Origin: Promethearchaeota archaeon
Lineage (GTDB): Archaea; Asgardarchaeota; Lokiarchaeia; Sigyniarchaeales; SOKP01
NCBI GenBank assembly: GCA_011364975.1
Contig: RDOE01000055.1
Location: forward strand, 1 to 20,962
Length of the DNA: 20,962 nucleotides
Direction: 5' to 3'
Shown: positions 3,893-20,805 of the stretch, in pieces
How positions within the stretch are numbered: the stretch's first letter is position 1
Layout of the letters: every line of letters starts with the position of its first letter
Program-made: the position numbers and the translations under genes
Notes under the pieces: generated by a model
What the model saw: the letters and a program-made list of their open reading frames with translations, nothing else
What the model was told of the DNA's origin: nothing
Database searches by the model: none

Positions 3893-5167
3893 TTATTCCG
3901 TTTTAAATTTTCGATATTTTAGAAGCTGTGCTAACCAGGCACCAATTCTTGCTTCCATTTTATCCTCGCTTTTTGACTCAGATTCAAGGACAGATTCTGC
4001 AGTTTGTGGTATTTCGACGCTTTTTACAGATTCAGCGCTTAAAATGAATTGTTCTTCATTTTCTGGTTTACTAATTGGTTCTTTTGGGATTTCTGGTGCA
4101 CTCTCCGGTAATGATTCATAAATTAATATTGATTTTGACTCATCTTCAGGTGGTTTAACTTCAGGAATGACTTTTGGTGCTAAGTGAACATCGGATTGTT
4201 CTAGCGCTTTAGACATTAAGGGGGAGACTTCCTCGATTTTTAGTTTGGTATCTGATTCAATATTTATTTCTGGTGCGGTTTCTGGCAACGATTTAGCAAT
4301 AGATACTAATTTTGGTTCATCTTTCAACCCAAAATCTCTGTAAGTAAGGAGCTGGGTTAACCATTCATATATTCTCTTTTCAGGCGTAATCTCTATTTCA
4401 GGGATAGTTTCCAAACTAGGTTCGAGATATACTTCCGTTTCTGCCATAACTTCTTCTTTAGCTATAACTTCACTCATTTCAGAAGAGGATACTACCATTT
4501 CTGATTCTTCTTGGGGCGTTTCATCTATTATTGTTGTCGGTGTTAATTCAGTAGTTTCATCATATTCTGGTGCAGGAATAGGTAATGGTGCGGGTTCAAA
4601 TGTTGAAGACTCTTCTGAGTTTTGTTCAATTACTTGCTTAGGTTTATGTGTAGGTTCTGACTCATAAACGGGTTCTGGTTCTTTAAAAACAATCTCTTTC
4701 TCATCTTTTTCTAATTTTACTTTAGTATCAATTATCTCACTTTCATCTCCTAGTATCAATTCACTTGGAGATTGAATGATCTTAAATGGATTATTCTCAG
4801 GTCGAAACATTTCAGAACCTAGAAATATCATTTTTGATTTAATCATTTTATTTTTTATCCGCAATTCTACTTCAAAATCTCCGGGTGTTAAAAAGTCGAA
4901 CCCATCTAATTCACTATCTAACACAGTATTCCATTCAATCGTATTTTTTTGTGTTTCATTTACTTTATAAGTATTTTCAGTTCTATAGACGTTGATAATT
5001 TTAATTTTATCTAAACATTTTATTTTTCCTTGGAATGACTGCCTTTTTTTCCCTTTAATGGTCCATCTTAAATGAAATCCATCTGATTGTTTCCATAAAA
5101 CATATCCTAAAAATTTACCGGGAATAAAGTCCGGTTTTCCTAAAATCGTTTTTACATTCATTTTCAA
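3893..5167 (-). CDS. Hypothetical protein: N-terminal beta-rich globular domain plus long Glu/Pro/Ser/Thr-rich disordered region with duplicated motifs
   Basis: 424-aa ORF (TTG at 5167, or ATG at 5161). Residues ~1-131 are beta-strand-like (GYVLWKQSDGFHLRW...LDGFDF...IFLG...NNPFKI), followed by acidic low-complexity sequence. Confidence 0.8.
   Translation of the reverse strand: MKMNVKTILGKPDFIPGKFLGYVLWKQSDGFHLRWTIKGKKRQSFQGKIKCLDKIKIINVYRTENTYKVNETQKNTIEWNTVLDSELDGFDFLTPGDFEVELRIKNKMIKSKMIFLGSEMFRPENNPFKIIQSPSELILGDESEIIDTKVKLEKDEKEIVFKEPEPVYESEPTHKPKQVIEQNSEESSTFEPAPLPIPAPEYDETTELTPTTIIDETPQEESEMVVSSSEMSEVIAKEEVMAETEVYLEPSLETIPEIEITPEKRIYEWLTQLLTYRDFGLKDEPKLVSIAKSLPETAPEINIESDTKLKIEEVSPLMSKALEQSDVHLAPKVIPEVKPPEDESKSILIYESLPESAPEIPKEPISKPENEEQFILSAESVKSVEIPQTAESVLESESKSEDKMEARIGAWLAQLLKYRKFKTE
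3905..4375 (-). repeat. Intragenic protein repeats: RIxxWLxQLLxYRxF x2 and SLPExAPEI x2
   Basis: RIYEWLTQLLTYRDF (~4331-4375) versus C-terminal RIGAWLAQLLKYRKF (~3905-3949); SLPETAPEI versus SLPESAPEI lie between them. Confidence 0.8.
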
Positions 5168-5448
5168 TCAAAACTTTTTTGTACAACTAATGTTAATTTA
5201 TTGAACGGCTAATAAATAAATCTTTATATTGAATTTTTCATTTTAAGAAAGCTTTATATAGTACTAATGATGAGAAATTTTCTATTTGAATAATCTATCA
5301 TCTTGTTATAATACTTATATGATTTACTTTATTTATTGAAGTTAGAAAAAAGATGACATTTTCATTAAGATCTAAACCAAATTTATGGAAGCTTCTTAAA
5401 TTTTAATTTGAGAAATATTAGTAGGAATAAATTAAGAAAATCAAAACG

Positions 5449-5472
5449 AAAAAAAAATTGGAATTAAAAAAA
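5449..5472 (-). terminator. Archaeal oligo-U terminator tracts after the K/A/P microprotein gene
   Basis: A7 (5466-5472) and A9 (5449-5457) on plus give U7 and U9 on the minus transcript, about 20-40 nt after the TAA. Confidence 0.5.
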
Positions 5473-5490
5473 CTTATTTTATTTGCTAGC

Positions 5491-5586
5491 TTATTTTTTC
5501 GGAGCCTTTTTCTTAGCGGGTGCTTTTTTTTTCGGAGCAGCTTTTTTAGCAGGTGCTTTTTTAGCAGGAGCTTTCTTTTTTGCCAT
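5491..5586 (-). CDS. Unannotated 31-aa basic microprotein MAKKKAPAKKAPAKKAAPKKKAPAKKKAPKK (histone H1 tail / PAKK-repeat-like)
   Basis: ATG at 5586, TAA at 5493-5491, 32 codons. GAGGT SD 8 nt upstream. Synonymous codon variation among repeats (CCT/CCG/CCC, GCA/GCT, AAA/AAG). Below the ORF-track length cutoff. Confidence 0.85.
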   Translation of the reverse strand: MAKKKAPAKKAPAKKAAPKKKAPAKKKAPKK

Positions 5587-5594
5587 TAGATAAT

Positions 5595-5643
5595 ACCTCT
5601 TCTTAACTATTTTATAATTTATAAAAATGATTTATTTTATAAA
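5595..5643 (-). promoter_or_regulatory. Shine-Dalgarno (GAGGT, 5595-5599) and candidate TTTATAAA TATA boxes for the microprotein gene
   Basis: Minus strand reads ...TTTATAAA...AAGAGGTATTATCTA-ATG; TATA-like octamers near 5616-5625 and 5636-5643. Confidence 0.55.
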
Positions 5644-5909
5644 GAATTGTTTAAGATATTTTTAAATGTTCCTATTTTGTCATATTGGATGATAAATTTA
5701 CTCTCATTTTACCCTAAGCTATGTTGTGGAATACTTAAGGGTTGAAAGCTATAAAATTCTTGTTAAAACTATAAGATAAAGGAATTTAAAACAAATTTGA
5801 GGCTCTGCTCAGTATATATTTAATGTGTACTGATTTCTAAAACATGTATTAAAGATATTTAAGATAAAAAAAAATGAAAGAACGCTTTACTTTAAATTAT
5901 TAGATTGTT

Positions 5910-6161
5910 ATGAATCAAACCAATAAAAGATTTAAAATCTCTGAAAAAGCGATATTGATTACTGGAATCTTGTTAATTATTCTTTCTTTTATAAGTGAGA
6001 TCAATTTTCACTTTATACAAGAATTTAGGCATGAATTAGTTGAAACAGATACGTTTTGGAGAGCTGAAGCTCCTGAAGTATTCAATTCAATGAGCTTTTT
6101 AATTATTGGGGTTATTTTGATAATAATCGCTTTTAAACTCTCAAAAAAGACCCAAAAATAA
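5910..6161 (+). CDS. Small two-helix membrane protein, unknown function
   Basis: Hydrophobic segments AILITGILLIILSFIS and FLIIGVILIIIAF flanked by basic termini (positive-inside pattern). Confidence 0.7.
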   Translation: MNQTNKRFKISEKAILITGILLIILSFISEINFHFIQEFRHELVETDTFWRAEAPEVFNSMSFLIIGVILIIIAFKLSKKTQK

Positions 6162-6193: not shown

Positions 6194-6580
6194 TCATAAT
6201 AATTTATCAATTATTTTGTCGACTTTATCTTTAATATCCAATACTTTGGAAGAGGGATTTTTTAATACTTGTTTTGTCTCTATAAAAATGTGAGTGCTTA
6301 TACGTTTAACTAGTTGTAGATCTACTTCATTTTCAATTAAAAATACAAAGTAAATGGATTTTTGATCCGAGAACAAGTCTTTAGTGATGATAAGGATTTC
6401 ATAATTTTCACCATAATTTATTGTCGCAATATCTTCTTTAAAAAGCTGTTTTCCAATAGCTCCAATGGCTGAGATTAATCCGCTGAATATCGCAGGTTCA
6501 ATATCATTTAATGTATCATCCATTTTTTTAGAATAGAAAGGATATCCTTGAGAATCACAGATTAGAATCGATTTAATCAT
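6194..6580 (-). CDS. Stand-alone longin-like domain protein (Asgard eukaryotic-signature type)
   Basis: MIKSILICDSQGYPFYSK (beta-beta hairpin), IEPAIFSGLISAIGAIGKQL (alpha1), three further strands, then two helices: longin topology at 128 aa. Confidence 0.75.
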   Translation of the reverse strand: MIKSILICDSQGYPFYSKKMDDTLNDIEPAIFSGLISAIGAIGKQLFKEDIATINYGENYEILIITKDLFSDQKSIYFVFLIENEVDLQLVKRISTHIFIETKQVLKNPSSKVLDIKDKVDKIIDKLL

Positions 6581-6667: not shown

Positions 6668-7636
6668 TTAAAAAAGTATTATAATAACGCCAACGACTGT
6701 TAGAATAACGCCCAAAAAACCTCTCTTTGTTAATTTTTCTTTATTTATTATGTAGGAAAAAGGAATTGTAAAGAGTGGTAATGCCGTCGAAATTAATGAC
6801 ATGAAGGAAGCACCTACTATATGAATTGCTTCCCCAAAAAAGAGACTCCCAAGAACATAACTAAGAATTGCAGAAATAATTAATATTTTCCAAGTTTGCC
6901 TATTTTTAGGTATTGGCTTATATTTTTGTTCAATATACGCAATTGTATTTAGAATAACTGCCGCAAAAAGAAATCTTACCATTAAAGCTAAAATCGTACT
7001 AAATATATTAGTACCTAATATCTGATTAACTTGACTGATCGAATAGTCTGATAAAGCAAGTCCAATTGCCCATGAAATTGCTGCTATGCTTGCATAAATT
7101 AATCCTTTAATCGAAATCGGAATATCAATTAATTTAAAATTAGTATGATCCCCCTCCTTATCATCTAATATTGTTTTTGGATTAGATTGTTTTTTTTGTT
7201 CAAAAATTTTTACTTTTTGTTTTGTGATAATAACCACACCTATTCCAATTAATATTCCAGAGAAAATCATTTGGAAGGTGAATGGACGATTTAAAAAAAG
7301 TGTAGCAAATAATATTGTAAAAAATGGGGTAGTATTTGTAATTGCAAGAGCTTTTGCAGGACCCAAAATCTTTTGAGAGTGGAGATAAGAGGTATCCCCT
7401 ATAATTACAGTAAATAAGATACTCATACCTAATAATGAAATAACCAACAAAGGAAGATTAATAATATTAAAAAGAAAACCAGAGAATAAGCAAATTATTA
7501 AAAAGCTGATTAGCCCAATAAGAGATCGTATGGCATTTTGAAAGATAGGCGTAGCTTCTTTTTCTATCTTCCTTGCAAGCACGAATGAAAGCGCAAATGA
7601 CACAGTAGTAAGAATTGCGACTACTTCTCCATACAT
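6668..7636 (-). CDS. EamA/DMT superfamily transporter
   Basis: About 10 TM segments in two repeats; TPFFTILFATLFLNRPFT and LPLFTIPFSYIINKEKLT...GVILTVVGVIII EamA signatures. Confidence 0.92.
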   Translation of the reverse strand: MYGEVVAILTTVSFALSFVLARKIEKEATPIFQNAIRSLIGLISFLIICLFSGFLFNIINLPLLVISLLGMSILFTVIIGDTSYLHSQKILGPAKALAITNTTPFFTILFATLFLNRPFTFQMIFSGILIGIGVVIITKQKVKIFEQKKQSNPKTILDDKEGDHTNFKLIDIPISIKGLIYASIAAISWAIGLALSDYSISQVNQILGTNIFSTILALMVRFLFAAVILNTIAYIEQKYKPIPKNRQTWKILIISAILSYVLGSLFFGEAIHIVGASFMSLISTALPLFTIPFSYIINKEKLTKRGFLGVILTVVGVIIILF

Positions 7637-7768: not shown

Positions 7769-8710
7769 TTAGCTATTTTTGACATTTTTCAATACAAAGA
7801 ATAGTGCTCCTAATTCACCAGTGATTGAAGTATTTGGAGGGACAAAATCATAACTTTGGTTATATACTGCCATCAATTCGAATCCACCAGCTTGAGCAAG
7901 CTTTTTAAATTCATCATAAATCCATAATCGAAGCTCATGTGCTTCTTGTACTACAAATTTTTGACCATTCTCCTCGACTACCATTTGAAAATCAACATGC
8001 CTTATACGATTCTCAATATCGTACCAATTAATTGCCCATGTAAGCTCAATTTCTAATCCATTTTCTTTTACATACCAAGTATCATCATATTTCTTTTCAT
8101 TCTTAATATCGTCGCATTTACAGCTAATTTCTACTATATATATGCCACCCTTTTTTATTGACTCTCCAGTTGCTTTAAAGTGCGAAATAATGTCTTCATC
8201 ATTTCTTAAGTAACCCAAACTATTTATACAAACGAAAGCAGCATCATATTTAGTCTCAAATATCATATCTTTCATATTTCCAACAACAGCATCGGATTCC
8301 ATATTCGAGATACCACATTTTCTTAAACGTTCTTTCGAATATTCAACCATAGCAGGGTTTAAATCATAACCTAGAGCAATATACCCAAATTTAGGTAATG
8401 CTTCTAAAAACATTCCCGGACCACACGCCGGTTCCATGACACGTTTCACAGCGATATCTGAATATAATTGAAAGCATTTTTGGAAAAAATTAATATCACT
8501 TATCACATCCCTTGTAAATGCCTTATCATAATACTTAGGAAAATCGTAGAAATGCTGGGTCTTAGGTTTCATATCTACAGCATAATTTTCTGAAATAGTC
8601 AAGTTTTCTTCAATAGCAGCATTAGCATTTTTATTTTGCGTTAAAATCAAATTCTTTTCATTCGAGTTCGTTAATGGTTTTTGGTGTATTGATTCTATAT
8701 TATTTATCAT
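7769..8710 (-). CDS. Class I SAM-dependent methyltransferase with beta-cap domain
   Basis: YDFPKYYD, VMEPACGPG, GYDLNPAMV, YDAAFVCINSLGYL, IKKGGIYIVE; GAGGT SD before ATG 8710. Confidence 0.9.
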   Translation of the reverse strand: MINNIESIHQKPLTNSNEKNLILTQNKNANAAIEENLTISENYAVDMKPKTQHFYDFPKYYDKAFTRDVISDINFFQKCFQLYSDIAVKRVMEPACGPGMFLEALPKFGYIALGYDLNPAMVEYSKERLRKCGISNMESDAVVGNMKDMIFETKYDAAFVCINSLGYLRNDEDIISHFKATGESIKKGGIYIVEISCKCDDIKNEKKYDDTWYVKENGLEIELTWAINWYDIENRIRHVDFQMVVEENGQKFVVQEAHELRLWIYDEFKKLAQAGGFELMAVYNQSYDFVPPNTSITGELGALFFVLKNVKNS

Positions 8711-9059
8711 TTTTATAACCTCAACTTATATATTTAATATGTCGATTAAATGTGCATATTATTCTTGTAATCATATTTTAATTAAAAGAAAGAAAGTTAT
8801 TTTTCCTTAGATTTTTGGAATTCCTAAATCCATTAATAAAATAAGATTTTTCTTATGTTTCTTATAAGTAGATTGAATCGTTTCAAATATATAAACTTTT
8901 TCTTGAAAAAGTAATAAAAGTTTTTAAGAACTTTATTTAAAAGGTTATTTTTTCAATAATGTTGGTATTATATCAACTAATACTATTTATTAATTAAATC
9001 ATTTAATTGGATTAATAGTACTTAGCATTAAATGACTTAATTTAAATAGAATTGGGAGT

Positions 9060-10457
9060 GTGATCTATATTTCTTCCCCCCCTAATAATACAGATAATCT
9101 AGATGATAGTGCCCTTAAAACCAAAACAATGCGAATTTCAATTGCTGAGGGAAGTTTTGGAGTATTTAGCAGTATTTTAGTTGACAATTACATCGTTCCC
9201 TTTTCACTCAGTATTAACTCCTCCCCATTTCAAGTTGGCCTTCTCACCTCATTGGGAAATTTAATCTCTCCCATGGGACAATTAATTGGAGCTTGTGGTA
9301 TCGAGAGAACTTCCCGAAAGTTTACTTTATTAAGTGGAATATTAGGTCAAGCTGCAGTGTGGCCGTTTTTCTTCATAATTGCTTTTCTATTTCAAATGGG
9401 AATGTTACAAGCATACCTTTCTTGGATTTTAATTGGATTCTTTTTAATATATATGTTAAGTGCAGGGATTATGAATCCTCCTTGGTTTTCAGTCATGGGC
9501 GATATCGTCCCAGAAAATTATAGAGGGAGATATTTTGCGAAGAGAAATTTAATTACTAATTCAATTGGTTTAATTGGGATATTATTATTATCTTTTTCTC
9601 TTGATTGGTTCAACCTTCAAGGGGCACTTCTAGTTGGATTTATGGTAATATTTATTCTTGGTTTAATTACACGATTAGTTTCAGCATTTCTTTTCACCCG
9701 CCAATATTACCCCTCATATAATTTTGAAAAAATAGATCACGTAAAAACAAGTCACTTTTTTAAAGAAATCCCTAAAAGTAATTTTGGGAAATTTACTCTT
9801 TTTGTATCGTTACTCATTTTTGGACAATGGATAGCAGGCCCTTTTTTCTCAGTATATATGCTAGATGAGTTACATTTTGATTATTCTATTTTTATCATTA
9901 TTAATTTATCCTCATCGTTAGTTGGACTTTTCATTTTTCCCATACTCGGTAGAGTTTCCGATAAATATGGAAATGTAATATTAATCAAACTTGGTGGAAT
10001 AATTATTCCTATTTTACCCCTCTTATGGTTATTTTTTAATACTCCATTAAGTATTATATTAGGACCTCAATTACTAGGAGGTATAGGATGGACAGCATTC
10101 AATTTAGCCACATCAAACTTCATTTTTGATAATATCGTCTCAAAAAAAAGAGGGAAATATATTGCCTTGTATAATTTGTTATTGGGAATAGCAATAACAA
10201 TGGGTGGTTTACTCGGAAGCGTTATAATTAGCTTTATTCCTATAGATTTCATGAATCAATATCACTTTTTATTTTTGCTTTCTGGAATTGTTCGTGTTAT
10301 TGTAGTAATTTTCTTTTGGCGAAAAATACAAGAAGTCAGAATAAAAGCAAAACCAATTTTCAATATTAAGAATTCAAGCATTTATAAATGGCTTTACGAT
10401 ATTACATTACGTAATAATCATAACGGAAAGAAAAACAAAGATAAAGTTGAAAATTAA
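9060..10457 (+). CDS. MFS transporter
   Basis: About 12 TM segments; MGDIVPENYRGRYFA and motif A-like GRVSDKYGN; GTG start; stop overlaps the convergent RING gene by 4 nt. Confidence 0.92.
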   Translation: MIYISSPPNNTDNLDDSALKTKTMRISIAEGSFGVFSSILVDNYIVPFSLSINSSPFQVGLLTSLGNLISPMGQLIGACGIERTSRKFTLLSGILGQAAVWPFFFIIAFLFQMGMLQAYLSWILIGFFLIYMLSAGIMNPPWFSVMGDIVPENYRGRYFAKRNLITNSIGLIGILLLSFSLDWFNLQGALLVGFMVIFILGLITRLVSAFLFTRQYYPSYNFEKIDHVKTSHFFKEIPKSNFGKFTLFVSLLIFGQWIAGPFFSVYMLDELHFDYSIFIIINLSSSLVGLFIFPILGRVSDKYGNVILIKLGGIIIPILPLLWLFFNTPLSIILGPQLLGGIGWTAFNLATSNFIFDNIVSKKRGKYIALYNLLLGIAITMGGLLGSVIISFIPIDFMNQYHFLFLLSGIVRVIVVIFFWRKIQEVRIKAKPIFNIKNSSIYKWLYDITLRNNHNGKKNKDKVEN

Positions 10458-10837
10458 GACCGAATAGTTAAAGAATTTTTTATTGAAAATGTTGTATTCG
10501 GTTTAATAAATGTATTTTGACATAAGGGGCAGGAATTATATTTTATTAACCAATTAGATACACACCTATAATGGTATTTACTTCCACAGAAAGAACATTC
10601 AATGGTATCAAATCGATTATTCCAGATGTATTTATGACAAACAACACACTGTACTTTATTTGTTTCGTGAATTTTCTCATTTTTCAATTTATGACCACAA
10701 TTTCGACAATAATTAATCTGTTCGTTGTTACTTCTCACAATTTTTATCCCACAATATGCGCAATAATTCATGATCCCTTCTTCTACCATTATCTCTTTTG
10801 CACTTAAAATTTCTTTTAGCTTTACTCTTATTACCAT
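10454..10837 (-). CDS. Double zinc-ribbon plus C4HC3 RING-finger protein (putative E3 ligase); true start may be ATG 10771
   Basis: CAYC..CRNC ribbon; CVVC-x13-CSFC-x4-H-x2-C-x3-W-x6-CPLC, with the RING Trp and CP.C. SD-like GAAGGGA precedes ATG 10771. Confidence 0.82.
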   Translation of the reverse strand: MVIRVKLKEILSAKEIMVEEGIMNYCAYCGIKIVRSNNEQINYCRNCGHKLKNEKIHETNKVQCVVCHKYIWNNRFDTIECSFCGSKYHYRCVSNWLIKYNSCPLCQNTFIKPNTTFSIKNSLTIRS

Positions 10838-13807: not shown

Positions 13808-14437
13808 TTATTTCATTTCATATTTTGTAATTATCATTTTAGTTAAACTCTCAAAAGCATTCTCGAGATTCGCGCCCGTAAGAATATCGCATTCAAAATA
13901 ACCATTTAATTCTTCAGAGGCTACAAAATCTAACCCTTCCTCTTTAGTTACTTGGCGGGTATCATTTAAATCATCACTACTACCCAACAAAATAATGGGA
14001 ACATTATCGGTATTATCCCTTATGATTTGAACCCATCTAGATAGTTTATGTAATGTTTCTGAATCTGAAATTTCAAACATTAATATCGCTCCCAATGCTC
14101 CTCTACAGTAGTAAGGAATCATTTGTCTCCATCGTTCTTCAGATGCTAAATCCCATATCTGCAATTTAATATTAATATCTTCTATTTTTATCTCTTTTAT
14201 CCCAAAGCTTATACCAATTGATAACTTTGTATTAGCTTTAAACCATGAGTTTCCAAACTTCTCTAAATAATCAAACTTACCTAAATTGCTATGCCCCAGT
14301 AATATAACTTTAAATGAAAAATGAGGTTCAAAATATTCTTCCGTCTTTCTTTTTGGTAGGAACGAAGGCTCCTTACTTATGATTGATAAATCCTCATTTA
14401 TTCTTCTTTTACTTCTTTTTCTTTTAAATAATCCCAA
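13808..14437 (-). CDS. Rab-like pseudo-GTPase with N-terminal MG plus polybasic extension
   Basis: Rab-family scaffold (KLQIWD, YYCRGA), but G1 GHSNLGKF, G2 S, G3 DLAS, G4 SSDD and G5 CDIL are all degenerate. TTG start; an in-frame stop lies 8 codons upstream. Confidence 0.85.
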   Translation of the reverse strand: MGLFKRKRSKRRINEDLSIISKEPSFLPKRKTEEYFEPHFSFKVILLGHSNLGKFDYLEKFGNSWFKANTKLSIGISFGIKEIKIEDINIKLQIWDLASEERWRQMIPYYCRGALGAILMFEISDSETLHKLSRWVQIIRDNTDNVPIILLGSSDDLNDTRQVTKEEGLDFVASEELNGYFECDILTGANLENAFESLTKMIITKYEMK

Positions 14438-14547
14438 AGCAGTTTTAGTCCTTGATTTTTAAATTAGTTCCTGTTATAAAATTAGAACTTATATTATATA
14501 ATAGAGAAGGGCAATATAAAATAAATAGCAATCCGGGTATTTTATAA

Positions 14548-15063
14548 TTATCGTATTCTATCTAACATCAGTTTGGTTAAAATTTTAAAACACTCTTCTA
14601 CATTCTCTCCCGTTTTACTGGAACATTCTATAAAGCCATCTAAACCCATAGATTTCGCAACCCTTTTTCCTTCTTCATAAGAAATTTCTCTAATTACTTC
14701 TAAATCTAATTTACCTCCAATTAAAAGGATCGGCATTTGCTCTCTAGCGCCATTCATAACAGTTAACCAATCGCTGAGGTGCACAAAAGAGGAATCTTCT
14801 GTAATATCATACATTAAAATTCCTCCCTTTGCTCCCGATATATATCGAGGAAAGATAAACCGAAATCGTTCTTCACCGCCAAAATCCCATATCATCAGCT
14901 TTACTCGCGATCCGTCAATTTTTAGATCCTTCGTCTCAAAATCAACTCCTATTGTCATGTGTAAGCCTGGAAGATAAAGTTCAGTTATGAATCTTTTGGC
15001 TAAGGTTGTTTTACCACAACCAGCATCACCAAAGATTACTACTTTGAAAATAGCGTCGTACAT
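14548..15063 (-). CDS. Rab-like small GTPase (Ras superfamily), no prenylation tail
   Basis: G1 GDAGCGKT, G2/RabF1 TIGVDF, G3 WDFGGEERF, G4 GGKLD, G5 CSSK. Confidence 0.95.
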   Translation of the reverse strand: MYDAIFKVVIFGDAGCGKTTLAKRFITELYLPGLHMTIGVDFETKDLKIDGSRVKLMIWDFGGEERFRFIFPRYISGAKGGILMYDITEDSSFVHLSDWLTVMNGAREQMPILLIGGKLDLEVIREISYEEGKRVAKSMGLDGFIECSSKTGENVEECFKILTKLMLDRIR

Positions 15064-15152
15064 GTTATTCTTTTTCCAATAATATTTTTTTTACTTCGGA
15101 ATATTGTTATTTGTATTATTATTAAACGAGATCATCTCTAATCTGCATCATT

Positions 15153-15217
15153 CCAATAAATCTTTAATTGGCACTTGAATATCCTTATGCTCTTAAATAC
15201 GCCTTTTTTGTATAAAA
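15153..15217 (-). promoter_or_regulatory. Conserved leader element, copy 1 (CCAA-N11-TTGG dyad plus ACGCC-T-rich block)
   Basis: 15153-15175 matches 20902-20924 at 17/23; 15199-15217 matches 20941-20959 at 17/19. Confidence 0.65.
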
Positions 15218-15246
15218 ATAATACAACCTAAAAAGAAATAATCTTT

Positions 15247-15263
15247 ATATTTAAATCTTTTCC
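15247..15263 (-). promoter_or_regulatory. Candidate BRE-TATA promoter for the 14548..15063 GTPase
   Basis: Minus strand GGAAAAGATTTAAATAT: purine-rich BRE followed by TTTAAATA; implies a leader of roughly 160 nt. Confidence 0.45.
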
Positions 15264-15394
15264 ATCTAATTAATTGGTTTTTCATTTTTTCCACGTAAGT
15301 TAACTGAAAAGTATAACTTTAGGATAAATTTAATTGCTATTCCATTTTGTCCCATGAATTTAAGGAATAAATTAATAAAATATTTATAATAATT

Positions 15395-15922
15395 TTAAAT
15401 CCATGAGCTTCTGTTATTTTTTAACATAATTTGTGCTAATTCTTGAAAAATAACATCTACATTTTGCCCTGTTTTACTTGAACTCTCTAAAAATGCATTT
15501 AATTCATGTTCTTCCATCAATTTTTTTCCTTCCTTAGTGGATACTTCACGATAAGCCTCTAAATCCATTTTGCCTCCAACTAACATAATTGGAAATGATT
15601 CAGAGGATTCCTTAATAACTGCTAACCACTCATCAATATGAAGTGTCGAAGCTAAGTTTGTAATATCATACATAAATATACCCCCATGAGCTCCTTTTAC
15701 ATATCTTGGAAGGAAAAATCTAAATCTCTCCTCTCCGCCAAAATCCCAAATCTGTAATTTCACGCTCTTATTATCTACGGTCAGCACCTTTACTTGTAAG
15801 TCGACACCTATAGTCATTTGAGTATCTGAAATAAATTTATTCGTCATGAATCTTTTTGCTAAGGTGGTTTTACCACAGCCAGCGTCACCGAAGATAACAA
15901 TTTTGAAGATTGCATCAAACAT
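15395..15922 (-). CDS. Rab-like small GTPase, no prenylation tail
   Basis: GDAGCGKT, TIGVDL, KLQIWDFGGEERF, GGKMD, SSSK. Confidence 0.95.
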   Translation of the reverse strand: MFDAIFKIVIFGDAGCGKTTLAKRFMTNKFISDTQMTIGVDLQVKVLTVDNKSVKLQIWDFGGEERFRFFLPRYVKGAHGGIFMYDITNLASTLHIDEWLAVIKESSESFPIMLVGGKMDLEAYREVSTKEGKKLMEEHELNAFLESSSKTGQNVDVIFQELAQIMLKNNRSSWI

Positions 15923-20292: not shown

Positions 20293-20805
20293 TCACGTCC
20301 TATTTAAAATTAATTTTGTAAGAATTTTAAACGCTTTTTCTACATTTTCACCCGTTTTACTTGAACATTCAAGAAATAAATCTAATCCCATCGATTTAGC
20401 AGTTTGGATTCCCTCATCATATGAAACTTTTCTAAATGAATCTAAATCTGCCTTACTTCCTAATAATAAAATAGGGAATTTATATCTGCCTCCATTTACA
20501 ACTGACAACCATTCATTAATGTGAGTGAATGATGATTCATCTGTTACATCATACATTAAAATTCCTCCCTTTGCTCCAGCAATATAATGTGGGAATATGA
20601 ATCGAAATCGTTCCTCCCCAGCAAAATCCCATATTAATAGTTTTATCCTCATTCCGTCAATAGTTAGGCATTTTGTTTCAAAATCAACACCCACGGTCAT
20701 AGTTGTATTTGACACAAATGAATTGGTCATAAAACGCTTTGCTAATGTCGTTTTACCTGAACCCGCATCACCAAATATAACTACTTTAAATGTAGCACTA
20801 TACAT
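20293..20805 (-). CDS. Rab-like small GTPase, close paralogue of 14548..15063
   Basis: GDAGSGKT, TVGVDF, WDFAGEERF, GSKAD, CSSK; 117/170 identical to the 14548..15063 protein by ungapped manual alignment. Confidence 0.95.
   Translation of the reverse strand: MYSATFKVVIFGDAGSGKTTLAKRFMTNSFVSNTTMTVGVDFETKCLTIDGMRIKLLIWDFAGEERFRFIFPHYIAGAKGGILMYDVTDESSFTHINEWLSVVNGGRYKFPILLLGSKADLDSFRKVSYDEGIQTAKSMGLDLFLECSSKTGENVEKAFKILTKLILNRT

Follow-up and report, generated by a model that had tools for sequence, protein, structure and literature searches.

A gene for a 31-residue protein that consists of lysine, alanine and proline (K/A/P) behind its initiator methionine lies on the minus strand of a 20,962-nucleotide stretch of Promethearchaeota DNA (contig RDOE01000055.1 of assembly GCA_011364975.1; here called the window, meaning the whole stretch that was analysed). 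We conclude that this microprotein gene is real, free-standing, conserved and under purifying selection in the K/A/P reading frame, and that the first residues of its product are those of the tail found on histones of the same lineage. By analogy with known K/A/P-rich domains, we put at about even the chance that the microprotein is a disordered polycation binding DNA or histone chromatin, in the manner of a histone tail acting in trans or of a tail-only H1. The gene is presumably transcribed and translated.

The open reading frame (ORF; 5491..5586, minus strand, with its ATG at 5584-5586 and its stop codon TAA at 5491-5493 in the ORF listing) encodes MAKKKAPAKKAPAKKAAPKKKAPAKKKAPKK, which contains 15 lysines, 10 alanines, 5 prolines, 1 methionine and no acidic residue, exactly as an earlier reading made from the sequence alone (hereafter the sequence-only reading) had described it. 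For the peptide, a net charge of about +14.5 (pH 7) and an isoelectric point of 11.1 were computed; prolines recur every 3-6 residues, and hydrophobic and acidic residues are lacking. The ORF stands alone in a gap that was earlier put at about 740 nucleotides (nt) and measures 742 nt, between an ORF ending at 5167 and another starting at 5910. The gene and its signals are located as follows.

5491..5586, minus strand: coding sequence of the microprotein, an ORF with orthologues in 48 genomes, a third-position bias, and five of five differences synonymous in a variant allele
5595..5599, minus strand: Shine-Dalgarno (SD)-like GAGGT, 8 nt 5' of the ATG, with an SD-like site in 46 of 48 loci and intact in the variant allele
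5659..5666, minus strand: TATA-box-like TTTAAAAA, 80 nt 5' of the ATG, a box common to 46 of 48 loci
5466..5472, minus strand: first oligo-T run (T7), 18 nt 3' of the stop codon, with a T-run in 47 of 47 complete genes
5449..5457, minus strand: second oligo-T run (T9), 3' of the stop codon, read from the window sequence

The sequence-only reading had correctly pointed to a well-spaced GAGGT and to downstream U-tracts, both T-runs being on the coding strand. As for the TATA-like boxes that it listed, the TTTAAAAA box proved to be conserved, whereas boxes nearer the start are not conserved among orthologues. The TTTAAAAA box is the presumed archaeal promoter, which implies a 5' leader of roughly 50 nt, and the oligo-T run after the stop codon is presumably terminator-like for the archaeal RNA polymerase. 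A scan with bacterial-type promoter and terminator models, which are uninformative for an archaeon, gave three promoter-like sites compared with 6.3 expected and no terminators, and no Rfam family matched positions 5170-5910 at E up to 1.

The repeats within the microprotein differ at the DNA level, since Tandem Repeats Finder detected only imperfect units of 15, 17 and 33 nt with 65-85% matches. A six-frame scan of the 3.74-Mb genome, which has a G+C content (GC) of 30.6%, found in the microprotein the sole stretch of 20 residues in any frame made up of K, A or P at 20 of 20 positions, the two runners-up reaching 16 of 20. The GC of the coding sequence is 0.39, compared with 0.18 in the flanks (mean over 32 orthologues).

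Comparison of orthologues bears out the earlier proposal that selection acts at the protein level and that the sequence is not a microsatellite. In 118 pairs of equal length, differences at codon positions 1, 2 and 3 numbered 171, 273 and 1113, with 940 synonymous compared with 365 non-synonymous codon differences; the pairs are non-independent and the register within the repeats is uncertain, but the bias is nevertheless large. For the first 32 genes the corresponding counts were 30, 68 and 374, with 340 synonymous and 84 non-synonymous differences. The same pattern is seen in a single variant allele from a metagenome, in which contig X7 (record 21) covers the whole gene together with flanking DNA on either side. 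Its ORF differs from that of the window at five positions, all of them third positions and all synonymous, and four listed differences fall within the 16 nt 5' of the ATG, with GAGGT unchanged. Short contigs piling up on positions 5520-5580 stem from other K/A/P-coding DNA; only flank-spanning pieces were used.

The signals around the gene are conserved as well. A TTTAWAW box is found at -100 to -73 from the ATG in 46 of 48 loci, most commonly at -81, and the other two carry, at this position, a version with one base changed. Many of the boxes are preceded by an AGAAA-like stretch. A purine-rich, SD-like site lies 4-20 nt 5' of the ATG in 46 of the 48 orthologous loci, and a run of at least six T residues lies within 75 nt 3' of the stop codon in all 47 complete genes. 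In its codon use, the microprotein gene is nearer to the histone genes (AAG 0.33 in both) than to the genome average (0.23). A microsatellite or chance ORF is ruled out by the conservation together with the codon-position pattern.

Orthologues were sought with DNA patterns back-translated from the microprotein, every hit in the archaeal family concerned being retrieved and translated; reversed patterns, which served as a control, gave no matching short ORFs. Since a protein-level search of relatives found the gene in only 5 of 41 genomes (the window genome, G000, included), far below the DNA patterns, the patterns were used. In a wider genome search, one of 369 pattern matches was confirmed, the rest presumably having been lost to low complexity. 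Related genomes, where the sequence-only reading had suggested looking, do carry the gene: it was found as a single copy in 48 of the 135 genomes of one family. Forty-seven copies are complete, with 27-38 residues and 45 distinct sequences, and one further copy is cut by a contig end. Carriers are distributed by genus as 17 of 42 genomes in g1, 29 of 54 in g22, 1 of 10 in g21 and 1 of 6 in g15, with none among the 23 genomes of the other nine genera. The single g15 copy (genome G072) matches a g22 copy (genome G139) at every base, both within the gene and in the flanks shown, which probably means that the 3.9-kb contig of G072 has been mis-binned or that one population is represented in both bins.

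The 47 complete copies hold 1586 residues (K 772, A 427, P 268, M 47, G 39, T 10, V 9, S 9, R 4 and N 1), of which 1467 are K, A or P (49%, 27% and 17%, respectively). Methionine occurs only as initiator, and there is no D, E, aromatic residue, C, H, L, I or Q, so the likeness in composition to the H1 C-terminal domain that was noted for the window peptide extends to the family. Four g22 genomes that were negative with the first patterns have the neighbouring genes, and by synteny all four carry a variant starting with MAKKAAP; the family counts are therefore lower bounds. Three species have an ORF shortened by a stop codon and followed by 5-11 further in-frame K/A/P codons up to a second stop, from which it follows that the length of the microprotein is flexible. 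These early stops suggest that the ORF was truncated recently or, possibly, that the first stop codon is read through.

Outside the family, the MAKKKAP-start pattern gave matches in 2 of 19 other genomes of the order and in 3 of 246 further genomes of the phylum, and a general K/A/P pattern matched 20 genomes. The non-family loci matched by the general pattern (20 of 22, the hits in genomes G379 and G380 being left out) are tails of longer proteins, plus one doubtful ORF of 28 residues at a contig end, containing E, V, S, I and D, which was left out. The microprotein gene was not found in five sister-family genomes searched directly (three of them single-contig), where K/A/P sequence occurs only in tailed histones.

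The start of the microprotein is that of a histone tail. The same DNA pattern that recognises the MAKKKAP start also found proteins of 77-94 residues that open with it and run into a histone fold. The window genome has four histone genes, one of which, a tailed histone on contig C177 (PF00808 at E 9.1e-10), shares residues 1-7 of the microprotein, and in this genome a MAKKKAP-type start occurs only in these two proteins. Among 49 complete tailed histones of the lineage, the commonest N-terminal tail begins with microprotein residues 1-10, and rarer tails are extended to 17-26 residues by the same K/A/P units. A 2026 preprint (10.64898/2026.07.02.735847) describes tailed histones as abundant proteins in cultures of Loki and Hod archaea, where they lose Met1 and are methylated on tail lysines; in Loki, tail residues 2-10 are methylated and an acetyltransferase acts broadly on lysine-rich disordered tails.

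The microprotein and tailed histone genes each have their own conserved promoter and SD context, and their upstream regions differ. A tblastn search with the histone fold against the 48 microprotein loci (110,593 nt) gave no fold remnant (best E 5.8). Since the promoter and SD contexts are separate and no remnant of the fold is present, the two genes are not recent partial duplicates. The sequence-only reading had also raised the question of an orphaned tail of a longer gene. This, or a truncated histone pseudogene, is ruled out by an in-frame stop 15 codons 5' of the microprotein ATG, a promoter and SD context unlike that of the histone gene and the lack of a fold remnant in the 48 loci. Judged by its sequence, the microprotein may amount to an unattached, DNA-binding histone tail.

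Such a protein could work in a simple way. An independent gene with its own promoter, a leader with an SD site and an oligo-T terminator would give rise to a 31-residue peptide without a fold, which would act by charge alone, lying on a polyanion. Given a charge of about +14.5, frequent prolines and the lack of hydrophobic and acidic residues, the peptide can hardly do anything but bind a polyanion. DNA or histone chromatin is our best guess because of the shared histone-tail start, the histone-like codon use and the literature on K/A/P domains. The target would most probably be the AT-rich DNA of the chromosome, or DNA wrapped by histones in chromatin, and neutralisation of its phosphates could lead to compaction or bridging, like that by a histone tail or the H1 C-terminal domain but in trans. 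Since residues 1-10 match the histone tail, the peptide may also share the enzymes that process it, for removal of Met and for methylation or acetylation of lysines. We only infer condensation of DNA, phase separation and lysine modification, all of which had been proposed from the sequence. A more far-reaching version, in which the microprotein would be the first archaeal linker-histone-like factor, a tail encoded as a separate gene that derives from or co-evolves with the histone tail, is served by the same lysine enzymes and sets the packing of Asgard chromatin, seems to us rather doubtful.

Several observations weigh against a role on DNA or chromatin, for which binding is itself a prediction. 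Only 7-10 residues are shared at the start, and the sequences 5' of the two genes are unlike each other, so that common descent from the histone tail is conjectural. MAKKKAP also opens RadA, a 44-residue protein and others in sister genomes, and it may be merely a favoured start for expression. The gene was not found by the DNA patterns in 87 of the 135 family genomes, and seven g1 genomes that are 98-100% complete were negative even with the general K/A/P pattern; given this patchy presence, either the gene is dispensable or the patterns miss variants. No RNA run was among the 24 sequencing runs holding the locus, a fact on which we place no weight. Finally, K/A/P tails are found on eS25 (PF03297), uL18/L5e (PF17144) and an FKBP isomerase in other classes of the phylum, and, in the family that carries the microprotein gene, also on a Clp protease and an AAA_5 ATPase. 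Since such tails are not DNA-specific, the composition argues for polyanion binding in general.

These tails bear most directly on the alternative that the peptide is real and its main partner is another polyanion, either ribosomal or other RNA, with a ribosome-associated or RNA-chaperoning role, or polyphosphate granules. Because the same tails sit on ribosomal proteins, namely eS25 and uL18/L5e in the other classes, we count this alternative as the main rival, while regarding it as unlikely. The K/A/P domain of AlgP is reported to localise to polyphosphate granules (PMC9239181) and the tail-only TgH1-like protein of Toxoplasma also to accumulate in the nucleolus with ribosomal proteins (PMC9769792). 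However, within the one family where the gene occurs it is a histone that has the matching start, the gene lies outside any ribosomal-protein cluster, and Pfam searches with 31 members, taken to E 10, yielded no ribosomal family. Moreover, a proline every 3-6 residues is unlike the helical, arginine- and lysine-rich tiny ribosomal proteins.

The ORF might instead be non-functional as a protein. What is conserved would then be an element of the DNA or RNA, or else a leader ORF that regulates the gene for a 128-residue longin/roadblock-like protein (6194-6580, minus strand, in the window), a gene that lies 0.3-3.3 kb downstream in many g22 genomes, and the peptide itself would be a by-product. 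The DNA being of low complexity, three other frames are stop-free in 29-32 of 32 genes. Of the 29 g22 genomes with the microprotein gene, 22 have the 128-residue gene on the same strand of the contig concerned, at a distance of no more than 3.3 kb in 19 of them. Against this, the third-position and synonymous pattern fits the K/A/P frame only, the ATG, SD site and stop are kept, a T-run intervenes between the ORF and whatever gene follows in 47 of 47 cases and no Rfam family matches. In addition, the 128-residue gene is upstream in the window and is absent from the other g1 genomes (0 of 41), 16 of which have the ORF. We therefore consider this explanation improbable.

Still less probable, in our estimate, is a peptide that competes for the enzymes (methyltransferases, acetyltransferases, deacetylases or Met-aminopeptidase) or the readers that act on histone tails, buffering them as a decoy and so tuning histone modification. 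The match of residues 1-10 to the commonest histone tail would suit such a role, as would the methylation of Loki tail residues 2-10 and the broad Loki acetyltransferase described in the preprint text (10.64898/2026.07.02.735847). It is, however, a purely conjectural role, and the gene has no modifying enzyme as a consistent companion. The class-I methyltransferase at 7769-8710 is generic, its best NCBIfam hits (19-29 bits) falling far below every cut-off (175-400), and it is found 0.3-7.3 kb away in only eight placeable genomes.

An exported polycationic antimicrobial, or a product resembling ribosomally synthesised and post-translationally modified peptides (RiPPs), formed with the help of the adjacent methyltransferase and leaving the cell through the MFS or EamA transporter, is highly improbable: the EamA transporter, class-I methyltransferase and MFS transporter genes do lie beside the microprotein gene in the window, the methyltransferase and MFS genes are syntenic near it in eight genomes and RiPP methyltransferases are among the best NCBIfam hits of the methyltransferase, but those hits are the same weak ones, the distances (0.3-7.3 kb) and orientations vary, the neighbours are others at most g1 loci, and the peptide lacks an export signal, a leader/core layout, a hydrophobic face and cysteine, and offers almost no serine or threonine to modify, unlike a RiPP precursor.

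Returning to the microprotein as a DNA- or chromatin-binding polycation, we compared it with known proteins of similar make-up. It resembles the C-terminal domain of eukaryotic H1 in its K/A/P composition, its lack of acidic residues, its expected disorder and a presumed neutralisation of DNA charge. In contrast to linker histone H1, it has no winged-helix globular domain and no Pfam hit, and its family contains no S/TPKK phosphorylation sites (S and T together make up 19 of 1586 residues); the H1 C-terminal domain is about 100 residues long, compared with about 30 for the microprotein. The likeness to H1, which the sequence-only reading had pointed out, is thus compositional; homology is not demonstrable, there being no Pfam family and no room for a globular domain. 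A bearing on the origin of H1, suggested in that reading, is speculative for eukaryotes, since just one family of the phylum was seen to have the gene and direct searches of five related genomes did not find it. Protamines and tiny ribosomal proteins of the eL41 type are likewise very short and extremely basic and bind nucleic acid by charge, but they are rich in arginine, which accounts for only 4 of the 1586 residues in the microprotein family.

The tails of Asgard tailed histones of the HLoB/HMpB type (10.64898/2026.07.02.735847) come from the same lineage, have the same MAKKKAP start, with 10 of 10 residues shared between the microprotein and the commonest tail of the family, and are lengthened to 26 residues by the same K/A/P units. 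The microprotein differs in having no histone fold, in being a separate gene with another promoter and SD context, and in being two to three times longer than the usual tail of 13-14 residues. Tail-only H1-like proteins of kinetoplastids and Toxoplasma (TgH1-like, 91 residues) are also free-standing, small, basic, K/A/P-rich and devoid of a globular domain, and they are reported to act on chromatin without one (PMC9769792). The likeness to TgH1-like is of kind and composition only, as the microprotein is one third as long, archaeal and known here from its sequence. Lysine/alanine/proline repeats are also found in AlgP and PhaF and in chlamydial Hc2 (PF07382), and KPAA-repeat peptides of AlgP bind DNA in vitro (PMC9239181). 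These proteins have 200-380 residues, another repeat unit and a GC-rich codon style, and AlgP has an added folded domain, whereas the microprotein has 27-38 residues and no other domain.

Since the defining domains or profiles of the H1, Hc2, AlgP and histone-fold families were tested and did not match, the microprotein is not a member of any of them. In Pfam searches at E up to 10, the window peptide had no match, and among 31 members of the family only DUF1388 was found, in six of them and with a best E of 0.12. Neither the histone fold (PF00808, CBFD_NFYB_HMF) nor the winged-helix Linker_histone domain, for which 31 residues leave no room, matched the microprotein; Hc2 (PF07382) matched none of the 31 members, nor did any ribosomal or protamine family. 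A profile of the family, run against 1.84 billion representative sequences, gave five hits (E 1.3e-5 to 1.9e-4, 213-383 residues), all of them K/A/P-repeat proteins, some of which, like AlgP, have an added folded domain, as judged by reading their sequences; these hits are weak and driven by composition. No short relatives were found among the representatives, but a low-complexity query of 31 residues can hardly reach significance in a set of this size, and the negative result does not argue that there are none. A collection of 15 billion proteins contained none of ten family sequences, in agreement with the remark in the sequence-only reading that the ORF track had missed the gene. The nearest clusters in the ESM Atlas are 'hypothetical proteins' of 32-38 residues (scores 0.96-0.97, 107-158 members), which may be this family or mere look-alikes, and the nearest cluster carrying a Pfam family (score 0.91) has HC2 on 17% of its members. 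The text of the preprint on Asgard chromatin (10.64898/2026.07.02.735847), supplements apart, makes no mention of a linker histone, microprotein, small protein or tail-only protein. Among the papers listed for Asgard small ORFs, archaeal H1-like proteins and the peptide motifs, supplements again apart, we found nothing relevant.

The microprotein is best called the shortest, free-standing, archaeal form of a lysine/alanine/proline nucleic-acid-binding module, with a sequence link to the tail on the histones of the same lineage. Asgard chromatin is described in that preprint text as having abundant tailed histones with modified lysines, and no linker-histone-like or tail-only partner was found in the literature covered here. 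A conserved tail-like gene would add to this chromatin a cheap, tunable, trans-acting layer of charge neutralisation, and the linker-histone-like version, if true, would show that a tail module acting by charge alone could occur unattached in a lineage of Asgard archaea. Such a gene falls in a blind spot of annotation, the microprotein family being in none of the look-ups of called proteins, and trypsin-based proteomics would destroy the peptide.

K/A/P tails are a phylum-wide habit on nucleic-acid proteins, being found in the family or the phylum on histones, Rad51/RadA, Alba and RNA polymerase subunits of the Rpb1 and Rpb3/D types; as a module, K/A/P sequence is a general nucleic-acid or polyanion handle and is not DNA-specific. 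For four kinds of tail-bearing protein, Pfam was run on one example of each. Three loci encode Rad51/RadA with an N-terminal tail, four an AAA_5 ATPase of 420-449 residues with a long N-terminal tail, one a Clp protease with a C-terminal tail and three a protein of about 287 residues, without assignment, with a tail near its C-terminus. K/A/P-rich tails in other classes were found on Alba (one locus), an RNA polymerase Rpb3/D-type subunit with 4Fe-4S motifs (two loci), the FKBP isomerase (two loci), eS25 (three loci) and uL18/L5e (four loci).

A second conserved small protein, found in six genomes of the family, has 44 residues, a MAKKKAP start and a conserved basic C-terminal motif. In genome G090, an ORF for RNA polymerase Rpb1 domain 5 ends in a like motif after a K/A/P linker; going by these sequences, the 44-residue protein may be a detached RNA-polymerase appendage. 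Three loci in another class of the phylum encode proteins of about 65 residues in which a MAKKKAP start is followed by what appears, by eye, to be a small helical DNA-binding or histone-fold-like domain.

Genes in the surroundings of the microprotein gene are partly conserved. Synteny searches by tblastn with short flanks gave no hits, and wider searches revealed conserved neighbours in g22. The 128-residue protein has a longin/roadblock-like fold (predicted local distance difference test score of the model, 75), with Foldseek matches to zeta-COP, AP sigma, LAMTOR and MglB at E 2e-5 to 8e-4. Its gene is single-copy, with homologues of 66-79% identity in 38 of 54 g22 genomes and none in the other 41 g1 genomes. 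The gene order of the window locus is shared with g22, and the contamination of the window genome is 6.09%; mis-binning of the window contig (C156), or its transfer from a relative of the g22 kind, may be the explanation. In eight genomes, as described above, the methyltransferase and MFS pair (7769-10457) is close to the microprotein gene. Because distances vary, a T-run intervenes and most g1 loci differ, the conservation of neighbours reads as inherited gene order rather than as an operon.

The remainder of the window is ordinary Asgard-like chromosome, in which we saw no viral genes. Directly downstream of the microprotein gene (3893-5167, minus strand) lies a gene for a 424-residue, very acidic, repetitive protein rich in E, P and S, which matches no Pfam or NCBIfam family. 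Such an acidic protein next to a polycation is a curiosity, but it was not found beside the microprotein gene in other genomes. On the other side are the genes for the EamA transporter (6668-7636), the class-I methyltransferase (7769-8710) and the MFS transporter (9060-10457), followed by a small RING/PHD-like zinc-finger protein (10454-10837, minus strand). Taken as a whole, the window encodes transporters and methyltransferases, AFOR and four Ras-family GTPases. In line with the Asgard setting that had been proposed, which the longin/roadblock-like protein also supports, these GTPase genes (13808-15922 and 20293-20805, minus strand), three of which are consecutive on one strand, are typical of Asgard genomes.

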